Shown in pieces: positions 3,740 through 12,874 of a DNA stretch of 34,271 nucleotides. The stretch is from a virus (Duplodnaviria; Heunggongvirae; Uroviricota; Caudoviricetes). The stretch is taken from IMG/VR virus record IMGVR_UViG_2734482775_000003, positions 1 to 34,271 of that record. The stretch is one strand, 5' to 3'. Position numbers and translations under genes: made by a program. The notes under the pieces were generated by a model, which was not told the origin of the DNA, ran no database searches, and was given only the letters and a program-made list of their open reading frames with translations. How positions within the stretch are numbered: position 1 is the first letter of the stretch; every line of letters begins with the position of its first letter.

Positions 3740-3939
3740 ACAAAAAGACCTGGTTTCGCGCATACATGTGGGCGCTGGTATGCGTCCTCGTCTCTTTCAT
3801 TCTGTATGCAGGACTACTCCCCCGAATGATTTCATCAGACAGCTCCTTCCTGGTATTGCTGGGCATTTTCATTGCCATGCTGTACCCGGCAGGCGTTGTT
3901 CGCCTTTTCAGTAAGTACATCAAGGAAATCAAGCAATGA
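3736..3939 (+). CDS. Small two-helix membrane protein
   Basis: 67 aa with two hydrophobic stretches (WALVCVLVSFILYAGLL and FLVLLGIFIAMLYPAGVV); translationally coupled to the SPFH gene. Confidence 0.55.
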   Translation: MNKKTWFRAYMWALVCVLVSFILYAGLLPRMISSDSSFLVLLGIFIAMLYPAGVVRLFSKYIKEIKQ

Positions 3940-4766
3940 AGAAATTCAAACTCTTTCAGATTCTCCCGCTTTTTGCCGCCATCCTGCTGGTTGGTTGCGA
4001 TCGCGTTGAGCCAGGTAATGTGGGAATCAAAGTCAACAAACTGGGCGACGACAAAGGCGTCGGCGAAGTAGTTGGCGTTGGCCGCTACTGGACAGGCTGG
4101 AATACAGAGGTTTACATCTTCCCGACTTTCAAACAAATGAAGACTTACGATGAGCCGTTCAACTTCCAGATGAGTGACGGCACAACCATCGGCTATCACA
4201 TCGGCGTGGCCTACAAAGTTGATCCATCCAAAGTTACCACGGTGTTTCAGACCTACCGCAAAGGCGTGGACGACATTACCGACACTGACCTGCGCCAGAA
4301 GATCGCCGACGCACTCAACCGACTGGCCAGCAAAATGACCACCGATAAATTCATCGACGGTGGCAAGTCTGAACTGCTGGATTCAGCACTTAAAGATATT
4401 CAGGCAGAAATGACACCCATCGGCATTCAGGTAATGAGCCTCTCTTATGTCGGTAAACCGGAATATCCGCCAACCGTTATCGACAGCATTAACGCCAAAG
4501 TCACGGCAAACCAGAAAACCCTGCAACGCGAACAGGAAGTAAAACAGCGCGAAGCAGAAGCCAACATGTTGCGCGCAGAAGCTGCCGGACAGGCTGATGC
4601 CATTCGCACAAAAGCCCAGGCTGAAGCCGACGCCATTCGTTTACGCGGCGAAGCTCTGCGCCAGAATCCCGGCGTTATGGAGCTGGAAGCGATCAACAAA
4701 TGGAACGGCACGCTGCCGCAATACATGACCAGTAACACCGCTGTTCCGTTCGTTCCCGTGAAGTAA
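3936..4766 (+). CDS. SPFH/band-7 (stomatin/prohibitin/HflKC-like) lipoprotein
   Basis: Lipoprotein signal with lipobox LLVGC; central SPFH-like domain followed by an Ala/Glu/Gln-rich coiled-coil (QREAEANMLRAEAAGQADAIRTKAQAEADAIRLRGEA), the usual architecture of bacterial band-7 proteins. Confidence 0.7.
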   Translation: MKKFKLFQILPLFAAILLVGCDRVEPGNVGIKVNKLGDDKGVGEVVGVGRYWTGWNTEVYIFPTFKQMKTYDEPFNFQMSDGTTIGYHIGVAYKVDPSKVTTVFQTYRKGVDDITDTDLRQKIADALNRLASKMTTDKFIDGGKSELLDSALKDIQAEMTPIGIQVMSLSYVGKPEYPPTVIDSINAKVTANQKTLQREQEVKQREAEANMLRAEAAGQADAIRTKAQAEADAIRLRGEALRQNPGVMELEAINKWNGTLPQYMTSNTAVPFVPVK

Positions 4767-4928
4767 TGACACCCGGCCAGTGCAAACCGCTGGCCGGAGC
4801 AGTATCAGGATTTTTTAGTATGCCGTTCTCACAAAAAAACCGCTTGCCATGCCGCAATCAGTCAGGTTACATTTTCGCTGCACCTCATAAAACGGGTGCC
4901 GGGTTTCGCAGCCTGCTGACTACAAGAG

Positions 4929-4958
4929 CGCACAACCGCGCCAGCGGTTTTTTTGTGC
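4929..4958 (+). terminator. Putative intrinsic terminator inside the early region
   Basis: GC hairpin CCGC-GCCA-GCGG followed by a T7 run, flanked by CGCACAA / TTGTGCG. Confidence 0.4.
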
Positions 4959-5133
4959 GTACTGTATTGCCACGTTTTTTTCGCGTCAGAATTATGGCGG
5001 GGCGTACGGGGCCGACTTCGGTCGGGCCGGGATCTCTTGTAGCCGGTACTGCGAACCTCGTACGTCTCGCCACCCACAGTTTCGCAGCTCTGGATGGTGA
5101 GCTTTCACAACTTACTACAAGAGGCCACATATC

Positions 5134-5364
5134 ATGGCAAACCGCAAACAGCACCGCGCTATCGCGGAGCGTCGTCACATCCAGACTGAAATCAACCGCA
5201 GACTTTCCCGCGCATTCCGCGTCGCTAAAATCATGCACATCAATATGCTGCATGAGCGTAGCTGCGAACTTTCAAACCTCTACTCATCCGCTGTTTTCAG
5301 TTATCTGGCGGATGATCTGCGCGAGCTTCAGCAGCTCATCCAGCAGCAAAACAAACTCCATTAA
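5134..5364 (+). CDS. Hypothetical Arg-rich small protein
   Basis: 76-aa ORF directly after the structured non-coding stretch. Confidence 0.4.
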   Translation: MANRKQHRAIAERRHIQTEINRRLSRAFRVAKIMHINMLHERSCELSNLYSSAVFSYLADDLRELQQLIQQQNKLH

Positions 5365-5436
5365 TTCCTGTTCCGGGCCTTTCCTGCACCTTGCGGCGGG
5401 AGGCCTTCGCACATCTGTAACCAGAGGATTGCCGCA

Positions 5437-5802
5437 ATGATTCTCGCCAACGACTTTCTTGAATACCTGCTCAACACAGAGCGTGATCTTGCCGTTCGCG
5501 TGCGTGAACGTTATGACATGTACCTGAAATCCCTGCCTGTACCGCAGCTCGCTGACGGAAAGATTGTTATTGATGGTCGCTACATGATTGACAGCCACGA
5601 GGGAAATTACAGGCTTTACCGCATTGAAGGTGGCACCCCGTCCGTTATTGGCATTTACCAGCGCCCATCCTCTGCAATCGTCGATGTGATTGCCGACAGC
5701 ATCCGCATCACACATCGCCATGCCGACACAGAAGACACCGTGCTGGAAATTCAGCGGCTGGCTACAGTCTGCCGCGACACCCTGAATGGCATGACGAAGT
5801 AA
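5437..5802 (+). CDS. Hypothetical protein immediately upstream of gpA
   Basis: 121-aa ORF, same strand, 6 bp before the gpA start. Confidence 0.5.
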   Translation: MILANDFLEYLLNTERDLAVRVRERYDMYLKSLPVPQLADGKIVIDGRYMIDSHEGNYRLYRIEGGTPSVIGIYQRPSSAIVDVIADSIRITHRHADTEDTVLEIQRLATVCRDTLNGMTK

Positions 5803-5808
5803 ATCACT

Positions 5809-8631
5809 ATGACGGCAGAGTACATCAGGGACTGGCAACAACCGCGCCACGCAGTAGGACGTGAAGGAACGGGGATCCCCGCACCTGAATCCGCACTTTC
5901 CTCCTGGCTGGATGCCTACCGGGCAGAGAACGAGCGCCGCCAGGAAATGGCTGACGCGGCGTTCTCCGCCACACCGCTGGGCAACCTGATTAATAAAAGC
6001 CTGGACGCACAGGAAAAGCAGGACAAAACCATCACACTGGCCAGAGAAGCCAGAAAACAGGCACGCGGTGCGGTGGATGAAGCCATGGCCTCGCTGCGCC
6101 TGCTGCCGTCCTATCTGCGCGATCCGCTTATTCGCCACCTCTCCTTCCTGCGCAAAAAACAGGAAGCCGATCGCCGGAAAGGCAAAAAGAGCTGGCAGGC
6201 GGAACGCTATGCACGCGGAACCCTGCGCAAAATATTGGAACGTCTGGCCCGCACTGACGGACGCTGGCTGACTCCGGGTTATCGCTCCCTTGCCGGACGT
6301 GAACGTCTGGACGATTTACTTTACCTGCCGCAGCTCAACAAACACCAGATACAGACACTGGCCGTCATGACGGCGGCAATGTTCAGCAGCACCTTCGAAA
6401 AACTCTGCGATGGCTTTGGCGCGACCGATGGCGAGCTGACCATGGATATAACGCTGAAGGCGTATCAGCTGCTGGCTCGCATGGCGTTACATCTGCACAC
6501 AGTGCCTCCGCATTATGACGCACTGACAACAGACAAAGACCGGAGGAACGAACCGGACACAGAACTGCTGCCGGGTGCAATCCTTCGCCTGACCTGTGCG
6601 GACTGGTGGAAACGCAAATTGTGGCTTTTACGTTGCGAATGGAGAGAGGAACAACTCCGCGCTGCCTGTCTGGTTTCCAGAAAAACATCCCCCTATCTGA
6701 GTCAGGATGCATTAAGTGAATTTCGCGCACAGCGCGAGAAAACACGCGATTTCCTGAAAAGTTTCATGCTGGAAAATGAAGACGGGTTCACGATTGATCT
6801 CGAGACGGTGTATTACGCAGGTGTCAGTAACCCGGTCCACCGTAAAGCAGAAATGATGGCCACCATGAAGGGACTGGAACTTCTGGCCGAAGCCCGTGGC
6901 GACAAAGCGGTGTTTCTGACTGTCACCTGCCCGTCAAAATACCACGCCACAACAGAGAACGGTCATCCGAATCCCAAATGGAACGGGGCCACCATGCGCG
7001 ACTCCAGCGATTACCTGGTTAACACGTTTTTTGCGGCGGTCCGCAAAAAACTGAACCGCGACGGCCTGCGCTGGTATGGCATCCGCACGGTGGAGCCTCA
7101 CCATGACGGCACCGTGCACTGGCATATGATGGTCTTTGCTCATCCGGAAGAAATCGACAGCATCGTGGCCATCACCCGCGATATTGCCATTCAGGAAGAC
7201 CGCCACGAGCTGGGCAATGATATTACTCCGCGCTTTAAGGTGGAGTACGTCGACGGCTCCAAAGGCACGCCAACCAGCTACATCGCCACCTACATCGGAA
7301 AAAACCTGGACAGCCGCGCCGTGGATGGAATCGACCCGAAAACGGGCAAACCACGCGTTGACCACGAAACCGGAAAATCAATGGCCGAGAGCGTGGAGCG
7401 CGCCATCGGCTGGGCGCGCCTTCATCGGGTCCGCCAGTTCCAGTTCTTTGGCATCCCCTCCCGTCAGGTGTGGCGTGAACTGCGCCGCCTTGCCAGCCAG
7501 ATGGCACGCAACCCGGAAGGCCCGCAACGGCTGAAGGATGACGCAATGGATGCGGTACTCGCTGCCGCTGATGCCGGATGTTTTGCCACCTACATTGAAA
7601 AACAGGGTGGCGTACTTGTTCCGCGCAAGGACTACCTGATTCGCACAGCCTACGACCTCGCAGATGAGCTGAACGATTACGGCGAACAGAGTGTACAGAT
7701 TTACGGGATCTGGTCGCCATTCATCGGGGAATCCTCCCGTGTGTGCACGCATCCGGATAACTGGAAGCTGGTAAGACGTAAACCGGAAGCGGAAGACAGC
7801 GCCCGCGAAAATGGTTTTGACCTTCAGGGCGGCCCTGCCGCCCCTTGGACTCGTGGCAATAACTGTCCCCGTGTACAGGAAACGGACAACAACGGGACAG
7901 AACAGCCGGAAGAACGGCCAGCACCGTGGCCGCAGCTCCCTGACGGCGTTGAAGTGAACGAATGGATGCGCTCACTGAAACGGCACGAACGCCGGGCGCT
8001 GATGCGTTCGCTTCGTGACAAACAGGCAAAAAACAGCAGTGATGAAATGCAGAGCTGGACACAGAGCCGCAAACAGCAGCGGCCTTTGCCTGATAACCAC
8101 GAATTACTCGCTAAAGAATGGCGGGAGTCTGCTGAATCTCTCGGCCTGCATATCGGTGAACAGCAGATGCAGCACCTGTTACGGGGCGGCAGTCTGTACG
8201 TTGACGGCAGCATCATTGCACCGCAGGGATTTGAAATTGTACGCAAACCGGATACCCGCCCGGACAGCCGAATCACGCAGCTCTGGCAACGCCTGAGCCG
8301 TAATCACGGCGTAAGCAGCACGGAGATCCGCCATAACCCGGTCGCCAGCTATCTGGAACAGCTTGGGGTATCAGACCCTGAAGCCGCCGCACGCCTGGCA
8401 TCCACACTTCAGCAAGACCAGAACACCATGAAAACACCCGTTACCGTGCTTTCTGACATGCTGCGCGCCATCCGCGACGCAGAGCACGCACAGAGAATCA
8501 GTGAAACCACTGAACGCGCCCGCCGCAAAGCAGACCTGCTGCGGGGTGGCCTGACCAGTGGAAACAAAAAACAGACAAAAACGGGATTCACAAATCCCGT
8601 AAATGAGCAAAAAACGCGCCGCGATATATGA
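5809..8631 (+). CDS. A: Rolling-circle replication initiation endonuclease, P2 gpA family (HUH relaxase-type)
   Basis: HUH-type motif TVHWHMMVFAH and paired catalytic tyrosines in SYIATYIGKN; position between the early operon and the packaging genes; about 180 aa longer than P2 gpA as I recall it. Confidence 0.9.
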   Translation: MTAEYIRDWQQPRHAVGREGTGIPAPESALSSWLDAYRAENERRQEMADAAFSATPLGNLINKSLDAQEKQDKTITLAREARKQARGAVDEAMASLRLLPSYLRDPLIRHLSFLRKKQEADRRKGKKSWQAERYARGTLRKILERLARTDGRWLTPGYRSLAGRERLDDLLYLPQLNKHQIQTLAVMTAAMFSSTFEKLCDGFGATDGELTMDITLKAYQLLARMALHLHTVPPHYDALTTDKDRRNEPDTELLPGAILRLTCADWWKRKLWLLRCEWREEQLRAACLVSRKTSPYLSQDALSEFRAQREKTRDFLKSFMLENEDGFTIDLETVYYAGVSNPVHRKAEMMATMKGLELLAEARGDKAVFLTVTCPSKYHATTENGHPNPKWNGATMRDSSDYLVNTFFAAVRKKLNRDGLRWYGIRTVEPHHDGTVHWHMMVFAHPEEIDSIVAITRDIAIQEDRHELGNDITPRFKVEYVDGSKGTPTSYIATYIGKNLDSRAVDGIDPKTGKPRVDHETGKSMAESVERAIGWARLHRVRQFQFFGIPSRQVWRELRRLASQMARNPEGPQRLKDDAMDAVLAAADAGCFATYIEKQGGVLVPRKDYLIRTAYDLADELNDYGEQSVQIYGIWSPFIGESSRVCTHPDNWKLVRRKPEAEDSARENGFDLQGGPAAPWTRGNNCPRVQETDNNGTEQPEERPAPWPQLPDGVEVNEWMRSLKRHERRALMRSLRDKQAKNSSDEMQSWTQSRKQQRPLPDNHELLAKEWRESAESLGLHIGEQQMQHLLRGGSLYVDGSIIAPQGFEIVRKPDTRPDSRITQLWQRLSRNHGVSSTEIRHNPVASYLEQLGVSDPEAAARLASTLQQDQNTMKTPVTVLSDMLRAIRDAEHAQRISETTERARRKADLLRGGLTSGNKKQTKTGFTNPVNEQKTRRDI
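8577..8606. repeat. Palindromic 30-bp repeat, copy 1 (inside the gpA 3' end)
   Basis: caaaaACGGGATTcacaAATCCCGTaaa, internal palindrome ACGGGA/TCCCGT. Confidence 0.6.
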
Positions 8632-8707: not shown

Positions 8708-9667
8708 ATGAAAATTTGTATCGACGACGGCTCCACCAACATCAAGCTGGCATGGACTGAGAACGGCGAACGCCGCAACGCCATCAGCCCGAACAGCTTC
8801 AAGTCGGAATGGTCTGCGCCGTTCTGTGGCACGCAGCCCGCGAACTATATGCTTGATGGCGTGCGCTATGGTTTTGATCCGGTCAGCGATCGCTTTGTCC
8901 AGACGACCGACACGCAATACCAGTACAGCGATGTGAATGTCATTGCCATTCATCACGCGCTGGTCAAATCAGGCATCACGCCACAGGAGGTGGATGTGGT
9001 TGTCACCCTGCCACTGAGCGAGTATTTCGACACAAACGCACAGCCGGACATGACCAACATCAACCGCAAAAAAGCGAACGTTATGCGCCCGGTGGAGTAC
9101 CAGAACGGCGAAGCATTCACTATCCGTAACGTACGGGTTATGCCTGAATCCATTCCGGCTGGCTTTAAGGCACTGGCTGACATGAGTCCGTTTGAATCCC
9201 TGCTGATTGTGGATTTGGGCGGAACCACGCTGGATGTGGCAAAGGTTCAGGGGCAACTGGCAGGTATCAGCCAGATGTTTTGCGATCCACACGTAGGCGT
9301 TTCTCTGATGGCCGATGCCGTACTGTCGGTGATGGCCACTAACGGTATGCGCACCAGTCACCACATCGCCAATACCATTATCGAACATCGCCATGATGAA
9401 GCCTGGCTGCGCCAGCACATCCACAATGACGCGCATTACGCCAGCCTGATGGCGGTTATTCGTGAAAAGGAAGAAACACTGAAACAACGCGTGATCCGCG
9501 CGCTGGCGGGTTTTTCGGGTTACGGGCGGGTGATGGTTGTCGGTGGCGGGGCGGAGATTGTGGCACCCGCTATCCGCGAAGCCTGCGGAGTTAATGCGAC
9601 TTTCATCGCGGACGGGGTGCCACAGTTTGCTCTGGTTAATGGGCTGTACGCAATGGACAAGGAGTAA
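8708..9667 (+). CDS. parM: ParM/StbA-family actin-like segregation ATPase
   Basis: N-terminus MKICIDDGSTNIKLAW, plus YSDVNVIAIHHAL, VMPESIPAGF, LLIVDLGGTTLDV and GYGRVMVVGGGAE, all closely matching plasmid R1 ParM motifs as recalled. Confidence 0.85.
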   Translation: MKICIDDGSTNIKLAWTENGERRNAISPNSFKSEWSAPFCGTQPANYMLDGVRYGFDPVSDRFVQTTDTQYQYSDVNVIAIHHALVKSGITPQEVDVVVTLPLSEYFDTNAQPDMTNINRKKANVMRPVEYQNGEAFTIRNVRVMPESIPAGFKALADMSPFESLLIVDLGGTTLDVAKVQGQLAGISQMFCDPHVGVSLMADAVLSVMATNGMRTSHHIANTIIEHRHDEAWLRQHIHNDAHYASLMAVIREKEETLKQRVIRALAGFSGYGRVMVVGGGAEIVAPAIREACGVNATFIADGVPQFALVNGLYAMDKE

Positions 9668-11845: not shown

Positions 11846-12874
11846 ATCAAGAAGAGCATAAGAGTTAAAACGGATCACCTCTTCGCCAAGCCAGTCATTG
11901 ATGTGCTTCATAGCCTCCATGACGGGCATCAGCTCGTTAATTGCGTAAACCCGCGCGGCCTTCTCCACATCACCAAACGCACTTTTTTCGCCCGGCATCG
12001 CCCCCATCAGTTGCGGCGGAACGCGGTGCGCAGCCAGCACATCATCACGGGATGCCGCCTTAACATTCATGAACTCATCTTTTGCGGTGATCTGCTGGAA
12101 CGGCAAAATTTGCACCCCCTCTTTGCCCCCGTTGGGCGCATGAATGAGCACGTTTTTAAACGCACCACCACCACGTGCCCCCTGTAGCGTTTCTTTCAGG
12201 GAGTCCATGCTTTCGCGGTTTACCTGCGCTGCACCGATGTAGATGATGCACCCGGCGTGGGATCCGTTGTCGTAGTACAGTTTTCTGAACATGTCCGCCG
12301 AATGAGACAGGCTGGCCGAGAGTAATGCGCCAAGATATTCCGGCATGCCGTAGATTTCCTGGTTAATGTCCGGATTCATCAGGTGGCACACTTTGCCAGG
12401 GCGAAACTGGAACGCGTCCTTGCCATCATGCACATACCACCATGATTCAAGATCGCTTCCGCGTCGCATGTATTTCGCCAGGGCGTGCCGTAATTTAAGT
12501 GGTTCGCCGAGCATATTGCTTCGAAGCTCAAGGAATGCGTTACCGAACACAAACCAGTCCAGCGCCAGCGCCGAGAAATCCTGCCGGGAAAGCAGCGGGT
12601 GCGGGATGTAGCAACCGAGTAATACATTGCGCTTAAAGTAAAGCGCAGACTGATGCCAGGACGTTTGCCGGGCAGCTCTTGCCAGACCGTACCAGTCCAC
12701 CGGGGTTTCATACCACCGCCCGTTATCAGCACAGTACATATTGTCCAGCAGGTCATGCCCGGTCAGGCGATAAGGACCATCAAATGTGAATGCACTGAGC
12801 GATGATTCTTTCCTGAGCGCATCAGCGAGATCAATGCGTGAACTCATGCGCACTTTTTTATTTTTTCTGCTCAT
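11828..12874 (-). CDS. Q: Portal (capsid vertex) protein, P2 gpQ family
   Basis: 348 aa; position and orientation (leftward, adjacent to terminase ATPase) as in P2; recognised by overall similarity to P2 gpQ. Confidence 0.85.
   Translation of the reverse strand: MSRKNKKVRMSSRIDLADALRKESSLSAFTFDGPYRLTGHDLLDNMYCADNGRWYETPVDWYGLARAARQTSWHQSALYFKRNVLLGCYIPHPLLSRQDFSALALDWFVFGNAFLELRSNMLGEPLKLRHALAKYMRRGSDLESWWYVHDGKDAFQFRPGKVCHLMNPDINQEIYGMPEYLGALLSASLSHSADMFRKLYYDNGSHAGCIIYIGAAQVNRESMDSLKETLQGARGGGAFKNVLIHAPNGGKEGVQILPFQQITAKDEFMNVKAASRDDVLAAHRVPPQLMGAMPGEKSAFGDVEKAARVYAINELMPVMEAMKHINDWLGEEVIRFNSYALLDEKTAP

Follow-up and report, generated by a model that had tools for sequence, protein, structure and literature searches.

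Based on Rfam matches, pairing analysis and comparison with known phages, it is highly probable that bp 4844–5133 of the prophage sequence studied here form an antisense-RNA immunity cassette of the IsrK-C4 type, a device also represented by seqA-CI-seqC of satellite phage P4 and by a1b1-c4-a2b2 in the immI region of phage P1, situated in the early operon of a P88-like prophage of the P2 family. The window, i.e. the whole stretch of DNA that was analysed, is the 34,271-nucleotide virus record IMGVR_UViG_2734482775_000003 of IMG/VR. Its gene content is that of a P2-family prophage, with the gene order integrase, C repressor, cox, small early genes, an SPFH/Band-7 gene, the region in question, a 76-amino acid (aa) open reading frame (ORF), a 121-aa ORF, gpA and ParM. 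The nearest deposited phage was Escherichia phage P88 (Xuanwuvirus, Peduoviridae), with 91.9% identity across bp 4600–5500. Scanning of the whole 34-kb window against Rfam with the curated gathering thresholds revealed exactly two matches above threshold, isrK and C4, both located in the region and both on the plus strand; no tRNA or tmRNA was detected in the window by ARAGORN. The features of the cassette, with the box names (a1, b1, a2, b2) taken from the curated P1 record, are as follows.

4844–4873, plus strand: candidate sigma-70-like promoter of the IsrK-like RNA, by consensus match (−35 TTGCCA, 4844–4849; 18-nt spacer; −10 TACATT, 4868–4873)
4880–4954, plus strand: IsrK/P4 SeqA-like small RNA (Rfam RF01394, 66.7 bits against a gathering threshold of 50, model positions 1–77 of 77)
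4880–4899, plus strand: IsrK hairpin 1
4900–4915, plus strand: IsrK hairpin 2, the loop of which holds box a1 (UUCGCAG, 4905–4911)
4920–4928, plus strand: box b1 (CUACAAGAG), in the IsrK linker
4934–4949, plus strand: IsrK intrinsic terminator AACCGC-GCCA-GCGGTT, followed by T7 (4950–4956)
4990–5077, plus strand: C4/P4 CI-like antisense RNA (Rfam RF01695, clan CL00128, 81.1 bits against a gathering threshold of 45, model positions 1–87 of 87)
4995–5011 with 5056–5072, plus strand: C4 closing stem, 17 bp
5012–5025, plus strand: C4 hairpin 1, with a UUCG loop (UUCG hairpin GGCCGACTTCGGTCGGGCC at 5010–5028)
5026–5047, plus strand: C4 hairpin 2, the 12-nt loop of which holds box b′ (CUCUUGUAG, 5034–5042)
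5049–5055, plus strand: box a′ (CUGCGAA), in a single-stranded stretch of C4
5064–5103, plus strand: alternative hairpin, formed between the 3′ side of the C4 closing stem (5066–5072) and a copy of its 5′ side located further downstream (5095–5101)
5115–5124, plus strand: box b2 (CUACAAGAG, 5115–5123), overlapping the Shine-Dalgarno sequence AAGAGG (5119–5124) of the 76-aa ORF, which starts with the ATG at 5134
Box a (TTCGCAG): a1 at 4905–4911 in the loop of IsrK hairpin 2, a′ (CTGCGAA) at 5049–5055 in single-stranded C4, and a2 at 5081–5087 in the leader
Box b (CTACAAGAG): b1 at 4920–4928 in the IsrK linker, b′ at 5034–5042 in C4 loop 2, and b2 at 5115–5123 in the leader

Relatives of the cassette were collected by scanning IMG/VR with the invariant 21-nt C4 core, which gave at least 119 stretches. 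When the window and four GenBank phages were added, the set comprised at least 80 unique regions, at least 22 loop sequences and at least 27 a′/b′ combinations, and at least 123 loci carrying the core were the base for the locus counts. The covariation alignment contained 27 representatives, picked by the C4 side alone, and the low pairing values in it stem from a few divergent, poorly aligned sequences. The upstream RNA has two 5′ hairpins followed by an intrinsic terminator, matches the RF01394 model over its full length and is a member of that family; its helices were 83–89% paired among the 27 relatives. For Rfam RF03163 (c4-a1b1), 19.6 bits were obtained at 4867–4919 as compared to the 46.7 bits needed. 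The candidate promoter, the −10 hexamer of which ends 7 nt upstream of the isrK match, is kept among relatives. The downstream RNA is a member of the C4 family, with a long closing stem around two hairpins and with boxes in loop 2 and in the 3′ single-stranded stretch, as in RF01695. Its minimum-energy fold was the Rfam consensus structure (−47 kcal/mol, z = −4.18), and the closing stem was 100% paired among the relatives, with 9 of the 17 pairs changed on both sides. Two hairpins pointed out in a sequence-only reading of this region, one terminator-like with a T7 run and the other with a UUCG loop, were both present and correspond to the IsrK terminator (4934–4956) and C4 hairpin 1 (5010–5028), respectively.

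Careful examination of the boxes revealed that the 9-mer CTACAAGAG occurs at 4920–4928 and 5115–5123 on the plus strand and at 5034–5042 on the minus strand, with no other copies in the window; shuffled sequences had a mean of 0.12 copies, and none of 100 shuffles reached three. The inverted copy forms the loop of hairpin 2 in C4, and the direct copies are its targets, one in IsrK and one on the Shine-Dalgarno sequence of the 76-aa ORF. All the features that the sequence-only reading had located here were recovered, some of them displaced by 1–2 nt, and its thrice-repeated 9-mer indeed has two direct copies and one inverted, while the antisense logic of loop and targets and the second box, TTCGCAG, had escaped it. 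Since this 7-mer by itself is not rare in the window, its weight rests on covariation in the relatives. The boxes of C4 are complementary to one upstream and one downstream site in the same transcription unit, as in the P4/P1 type of immunity. The second of these sites extends into the ribosome-binding site that serves the first ORF, likewise as in P4 and P1.

Over the cassette, the window, P88 and PV468777 were nearly identical save for the boxes, in which the changes were compensatory at all three sites. The b box reads CTACAAGAG, CAACTACAG and CTACACAAG in the window, P88 and PV468777, respectively, with the loops CTCTTGTAG, CTGTAGTTG and CTTGTGTAG. In nearly all of the a′/b′ combinations the cognate upstream and downstream sites were exact complements of C4, and the a and b boxes reassorted independently of each other. 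When paired with C4, the IsrK target had 92.8% of alignment cells paired and 14 of 16 pairs changed on both sides, with a covariation of 0.759 versus at most 0.23 in slid controls; the corresponding values for the leader target were 84.9%, 12 of 16, and 0.582 versus at most 0.22, and for neither target was any of 500 shuffles as good. The C4-leader duplex had a mean energy of −30.5 kcal/mol for cognate pairs as compared to −17.7 ± 4.6 for non-cognate ones. Conservation of the repeats in related phages, on which the sequence-only reading had made its claim depend in part, was seen, the boxes being kept complementary at three sites in the 27 representatives. Together, the variants provide more than 20 naturally occurring, mutually orthogonal specificities of short RNA-RNA pairing.

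Box a2 (UUCGCAG, 5081–5087) is located in the loop of the alternative hairpin (5064–5103), 3′ of which most relatives have UUUU. The helix of this hairpin was 87% paired, versus at most 56% in slid controls, with 6 of 9 pairs changed on both sides, and was also visible in P4 (GCTATCGCC/GGCGATAGC, approximately 8395–8435, minus strand) and P1 (CCTGCCACC/GGTAGCAGG, approximately 12408–12442). On in silico folding of the full-length transcript, pairing of IsrK with C4 in cis displaces the C4 fold and the alternative hairpin forms. The helix may act as an attenuator or terminator, or it may serve to present the target.

The cassette is collinear with its counterparts in P4 and P1. P4, the layout of which is PLE - seqA - CI RNA/seqB - seqC - kil/eta - epsilon - alpha, contains members of both Rfam families, in the order seen in the window and likewise both on one strand, with scores of 74.9 bits for C4 (the CI RNA) and 60.8 bits for isrK (the seqA RNA). 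Its layout is that of the window, in that 1) the promoter (PLE, TTGCCT-17-TATAGT) has a −10 ending 7 nt before the IsrK-like start, 2) GTGAGAA (a1) lies in the loop of hairpin 2 and TTCACAGG (b1) in the linker, with the terminator next, 3) CI loop 2 contains CCTGTGAA, with TTCTCAC after it, 4) the downstream GTGAGAA (a2) lies in the loop of the alternative helix and TTCACAGGAGG (b2) on the Shine-Dalgarno sequence of the first ORF, and 5) epsilon and a replication gene (alpha in P4) are located downstream. Unlike the satellite P4, however, the window is an autonomous phage of the P2 family that has a C/Cox protein switch of its own; epsilon directly follows the leader as the first ORF, with no kil/eta in between; the replication gene is the P2-type nickase gpA instead of the alpha primase-helicase; the spacer between IsrK and C4 is 35 nt long versus approximately 107 nt; and the cassette lies approximately 3.5 kb inside the early operon, with box sequences unrelated to those of P4. 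A helper-type P2-like lineage has the RNA switch of the satellite together with an epsilon homologue, which bears on the origin of the immunity and derepression genes of P4.

In P1/P7 immI, the layout is P51a/P51b - a1 b1 - c4 - a2 b2 - icd - ant. The C4 of P1 is a member of the same family (68.8 bits), and its curated a1, b1, a2 and b2 occupy the same positions relative to the structure, b2 being at the ribosome-binding site of the first ORF and described with 'repression of icd ant translation'. P1 also resembles the window in having an upstream promoter under C1 control (P51a) and a constitutive proximal one (P1c4/P51b) with the geometry of the candidate IsrK promoter, and in that the controlled product is, or in the window would be, an anti-repressor, whereas the downstream genes differ, icd/ant in P1 and epsilon-like/orf121/gpA in the window. 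The upstream RNA of P1 scored 51 bits for c4-a1b1 and 35 bits for isrK, while the reverse was found in the window (19.6 and 66.7 bits, respectively), so that the window is closest to the P4 version. According to a 2025 review, changes in the boxes swap specificity, as in the heteroimmunity of P1 and P7, and c4 blocks ant expression at the ribosome-binding site (PMC12197685).

The isrK-orf45(STnc1160)-anrP region of the Salmonella prophage Gifsy-1 likewise has an IsrK family RNA with an anti-repressor gene downstream. Hershko-Shalev et al. regarded IsrK as a structural homologue of P4 SeqA and found the Gifsy-1 IsrK terminator to be leaky (PMC4825925), and the middle part of that RNA pairs with downstream RNA, controlling the anti-repressor (PMC4825925). 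An equivalent long-range helix was present in the predicted full-length fold of the window, resembling 'structure A' of that study (PMC4825925), and a leader ORF similarly starts at an AUG on the 5′ edge of C4; Gifsy-1 orf45 is translated (PMC4825925). The Gifsy-1 leader ORF has 45 codons and ends beside anrP, whereas the same frame in the window runs for 148 codons through the 76-aa ORF to the next start; in addition, the Gifsy-1 host phage is lambdoid, with AntQ-mediated antitermination as the output, unlike the window. The sequence-only reading had offered three implications of a terminator at this place, namely read-through under regulation, a new promoter, or a small RNA. By homology all three apply, in view of the leaky Gifsy-1 terminator (PMC4825925), the promoter-like site and the two Rfam RNAs. 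The interpretation is supported in part, being sound in direction but incomplete.

Three genes follow the cassette, with orf121 and gpA assigned to the transcription unit of the epsilon-like ORF.

5134–5364, plus strand: 76-aa ORF, homologue of P4 epsilon (helper derepression), the first gene after the C4 leader
5437–5802, plus strand: orf121, 121 aa, between the epsilon-like ORF and gpA
5809–8631, plus strand: gpA, P2-type replication nickase, 940 aa (Pfam Phage_GPA, E = 4e-129)

The 76-aa ORF matched Pfam PF25738 'Derepression' with 29.5 bits against a gathering threshold of 27 and was 29% identical to P4 epsilon over 66 aa (BLASTP, E = 1e-8). Its variable columns were distributed over codon positions 1, 2 and 3 as 31/29/54, a coding signature. 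We regard its product as a homologue of an anti-repressor, with a putative activity of this kind as judged by sequence. The gene is C-rich and G-poor, with a C/G ratio of 1.57 versus 1.05–1.18 in the neighbouring genes, and an untranslated copy would therefore be a plausible, rut-like substrate for Rho. No similarity was detected between orf121 and P4 orf151. Among relatives, the epsilon-like protein (46–100% identity, at least 14 types) varied much more than the adjacent orf121 and gpA, which were mostly at least 95% identical.

In the mechanism proposed here, transcription, processing, the block of translation, the polar effect on gpA and the direction in which IsrK acts are taken over from the homologous systems. 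Transcription would start at approximately 4880 from the internal promoter (4844–4873), and most transcripts would end at the IsrK terminator to give a short IsrK RNA, while transcripts reading through it, and those from the upstream early promoter controlled by the C repressor, would be processed to a C4 RNA of approximately 78 nt. By analogy, C4 would be cut from the longer transcript by RNase P and would accumulate in lysogens, with which the conserved geometry of the promoter and the resemblance of the closing stem to a tRNA are consistent. It would present b′ (CUCUUGUAG) in the loop of hairpin 2 and a′ (CUGCGAA) in single-stranded form, and these would pair in trans with b2 (5115–5123), which covers the Shine-Dalgarno sequence, and a2 (5081–5087) in the next gene's leader. 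This pairing would block translation of that gene, which encodes the epsilon-like anti-repressor homologue, and the untranslated C-rich message would probably be terminated or uncoupled, by which orf121 and gpA would be kept low; control of these two genes is presumed to operate through polarity or coupling with the epsilon-like gene. The a1 and b1 boxes of IsrK, identical to the targets, would either bind C4 in cis, while both are part of the precursor, or titrate it in trans, acting as an antagonist or decoy that sets the switch. In this manner, C4 would act in trans to block the downstream genes and confer specific superinfection immunity, and the C-rich epsilon-like gene is compatible with Rho polarity. 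From the work of Forti, Briani, Dehò and Ghisotti and of Biere, Citron and Schuster, CI/C4 is said to be processed by RNase P, and the translational block in P4 and P1 reportedly leads to Rho-dependent termination. The cassette suggests that, like P1, these prophages have two independent immunity determinants.

Several points weigh against this interpretation. Expression in this phage would follow by homology, and the IsrK promoter is a consensus match, the promoter scan having given 2 sites versus 1.8 expected by chance. The C4-target interaction is short, 9 + 7 bp. Between C4 and gpA no intrinsic terminator was found, and orf121 and gpA could be translated independently. IsrK would be an activating decoy by the Gifsy-1 model and would be required for repression if it resembles P4 seqA. 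The types of the epsilon-like protein did not track those of the C repressor, type E0 occurring with six C types and type C1 with three E types; because of this independence, action on the phage's own repressor is plausible but unsupported, and the specificity of P4 epsilon may be broad. Lastly, an open reading frame conserved across the cassette, described below, is unaccounted for by the RNA immunity model. A second promoter considered in front of C4 (TTGCCA-17-AATTAT, 4967–4995) was rejected because its −10 lies inside the 5′ leader of the C4 model, so that the start would fall in the closing stem; it is probably a chance match given the above scan figures, and P1 has no annotated promoter at that position.

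Among the 123 loci listed, 86 had an epsilon-like ORF at the same distance, 77 of these with gpA, five were P4-like with the alpha primase, and 32 were others, some of which had a Rha or BRO-N/P22-type anti-repressor gene as the first ORF after the cassette. The first downstream ORF was a gene of the anti-repressor type in all contexts where it was classified. A near match was present in 1282 of 5426 complete Escherichia coli genomes (approximately 24%), with no annotation under the best matches listed. The comparison with P2 and its relatives that the sequence-only reading had called for gave a divided answer, in that P88-like phages have the cassette whereas P2 and 186 do not: these two had no Rfam match, and their annotated genes run up to A without a comparable non-coding gap, which indicates that the cassette is not a general feature of the P2 family. 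No account of it in P88 or Xuanwuvirus was found in the literature searched. It is a new, unannotated instance of a well-known regulatory device of phages, which would surprise a specialist little. Elsewhere, this abundant element has been mistaken for coding sequence, under the labels 'ash family' and 'transcriptional regulator' or as part of an N-terminally extended Rha. Types of the epsilon-like protein, of the C repressor and of the RNA boxes were all seen to reassort independently.

A wider proposal, which we put forward tentatively and consider rather unlikely, is that P88-like phages run a second, purely RNA-based immunity, with at least 22 loop variants and with a and b boxes that are shuffled separately from one another and from the C repressor, gating an anti-repressor of the epsilon type as well as the replication initiator, and that in addition a frame is kept open for the transit of ribosomes, a 148-codon leader ORF resembling orf45 coupling translation, or blocking Rho, for orf121 and gpA. 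If so, the immunity and derepression cassettes of P4 and its helpers would share ancestry and could possibly cross-talk.

It is improbable that the cassette serves chiefly as a weapon or shield in conflict between helper and satellite, a P2-like helper using its CI-like RNA and epsilon homologue to interfere with or resist P4-like satellites, with control of the phage's own replication genes being secondary. P4-like loci with an identical 21-nt C4 core, the protective role that Barquist et al. proposed for lambdoid copies (PMC3632133) and the reassortment of the boxes independently of C-repressor type would be in line with such a role. So would the a′ of P88 C4 (GUGGAAA), which is the exact reverse complement of the a′ (UUUCCAC) in several P4-like CI RNAs (L018, L058, L106 and L117); owing to this complementarity the two antisense RNAs could pair, though the match may be due to chance. 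However, no sampled P4-like locus shared an a′/b′ pair with a P88-like phage, and in every P88-like variant C4 matched its own leader and its own IsrK, so that self-regulation is the conserved interaction.

Another alternative concerns an open frame that crosses the whole region.

4766–5440, plus strand: 224-codon open frame, running through IsrK, C4 and, in another frame, the whole epsilon-like gene

This frame ends in an ATGA overlap with the start of orf121 and has an internal AUG at 4994, on the 5′ edge of C4, from which a 148-codon version would start. The 224-aa ORF, or its 148-aa version, might be a real 'Ash family' protein or transcriptional regulator, with the hairpins being incidental; we judge this slightly less probable than a role in conflict with satellites. 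The frame was open in nearly all relatives, and in 50 of 50 distinct epsilon genes, as compared to an expected 10% (synonymous recoding) or 31% (codon permutation). Polymorphic stop sites were depleted in its phase, numbering 10/9/1 by phase in the RNA part and 12 versus 0 across the epsilon-like gene, and Gifsy-1 orf45, starting at the equivalent AUG, is translated (PMC4825925). In view of the relatedness of the sequences and the post hoc discovery of the ORF, this conservation is suggestive only. Weak matches to Pfam PF10554 Phage_ASH and to PHROG 'transcriptional regulator' families also speak for a protein; they cover residues 31–131 only (window 4856–5160), i.e. translated IsrK and C4, and the Pfam scores of 19.7 and 21.4 bits are below the cut-off of 26. 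Moreover, variation in the region follows RNA pairing, compensatory at three sites, and so entails non-synonymous swaps of the boxes in this frame; the third-position enrichment over the epsilon-like gene (31/29/54) fits the epsilon frame and not the 224-codon frame, which showed no coding-type pattern of substitution there; and the predicted product is rich in Ser, Thr and Ala and of low complexity. The sequence-only reading had denied the region coding capacity and called this ORF implausible, with which the lack of protein-type conservation and the low complexity agree; the frame is nevertheless unusually conserved as open. It may be a leader or transit ORF similar to orf45.

In P4, PF10554 matches the translated seqA-CI region with 82.9 bits and not epsilon, the true epsilon matching PF25738 with 170 bits; no similarity between the 224-aa ORF and the P4 'cI ORF' was detected by BLASTP, though both match PF10554. 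In the Rha and P4-like contexts, a frame of the 224-codon type is continuous with the downstream gene, which explains the old P4 'cI ORF', the N-terminally extended annotations of Rha and regulators, and the Phage_ASH and PHROG 'regulator' matches. PF10554 has served as the marker of 'epsilon' when P4-like satellites were surveyed (PMC8628076), although what it detects in P4 is the translated RNA-immunity region. At P4 8168–8710 (minus strand), PHROGs 995, 6928 and 821 ('transcriptional regulator') were seen to match the translated seqA and CI RNA genes together with PF10554, and in several GenBank records the coding sequences of Rha or regulators are extended over the RNA genes.

Finally, a plain intrinsic terminator or attenuator internal to the operon, with chance repeats and no trans-acting RNA, would suit the canonical terminator (4934–4956) and the alternative hairpin (5064–5103), after which a U-rich tract is found in most relatives, but is hardly tenable, since both Rfam models match full length above threshold, three-site covariation cannot come from a plain terminator and the triple occurrence of the 9-mer is not expected by chance.

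Two further features lie upstream of the cassette.

3936–4766, plus strand: SPFH/Band-7 'lipoprotein' cargo gene, immediately 5′ of the region
4773–4797, plus strand: stable stem-loop directly 3′ of the SPFH stop codon, at the 3′ end of the SPFH cargo insertion

The hairpin reported after the SPFH stop codon in the sequence-only reading was found, with arms CCGGCCAG (4773–4780) and CTGGCCGG (4790–4797), a predicted 10-bp stem and z = −3.05; it fell outside the terminator calls because the U-run begins 13 nt past the stem. P88, which has the SPFH gene, possesses this hairpin, whereas PV468777, which lacks the gene, does not, and homology between P88 and PV468777 restarts at approximately 4829. 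From this comparison, the hairpin belongs to the SPFH cargo insertion, outside the RNA cassette, and its grouping with the rest of the region did not hold, as it travels with the SPFH gene. The SPFH/Band-7 gene with its 3′ hairpin (3936–4797) was a cargo of some P88-like phages only, seen in 19 of the 123 loci listed and always immediately 5′ of the RNA cassette.

Downstream, the 940-aa gpA is larger than its counterparts in P2 (761 aa) and 186 (694 aa), and Phage_GPA covers residues 179–503, leaving sizeable extra N- and C-terminal regions. It is followed by a ParM-type actin-like segregation gene (8708–9667), which in P88 has an adjoining partner partition gene. ParM is unusual in an integrating P2-like phage, which suggests plasmid-like maintenance or a function in replication and segregation.

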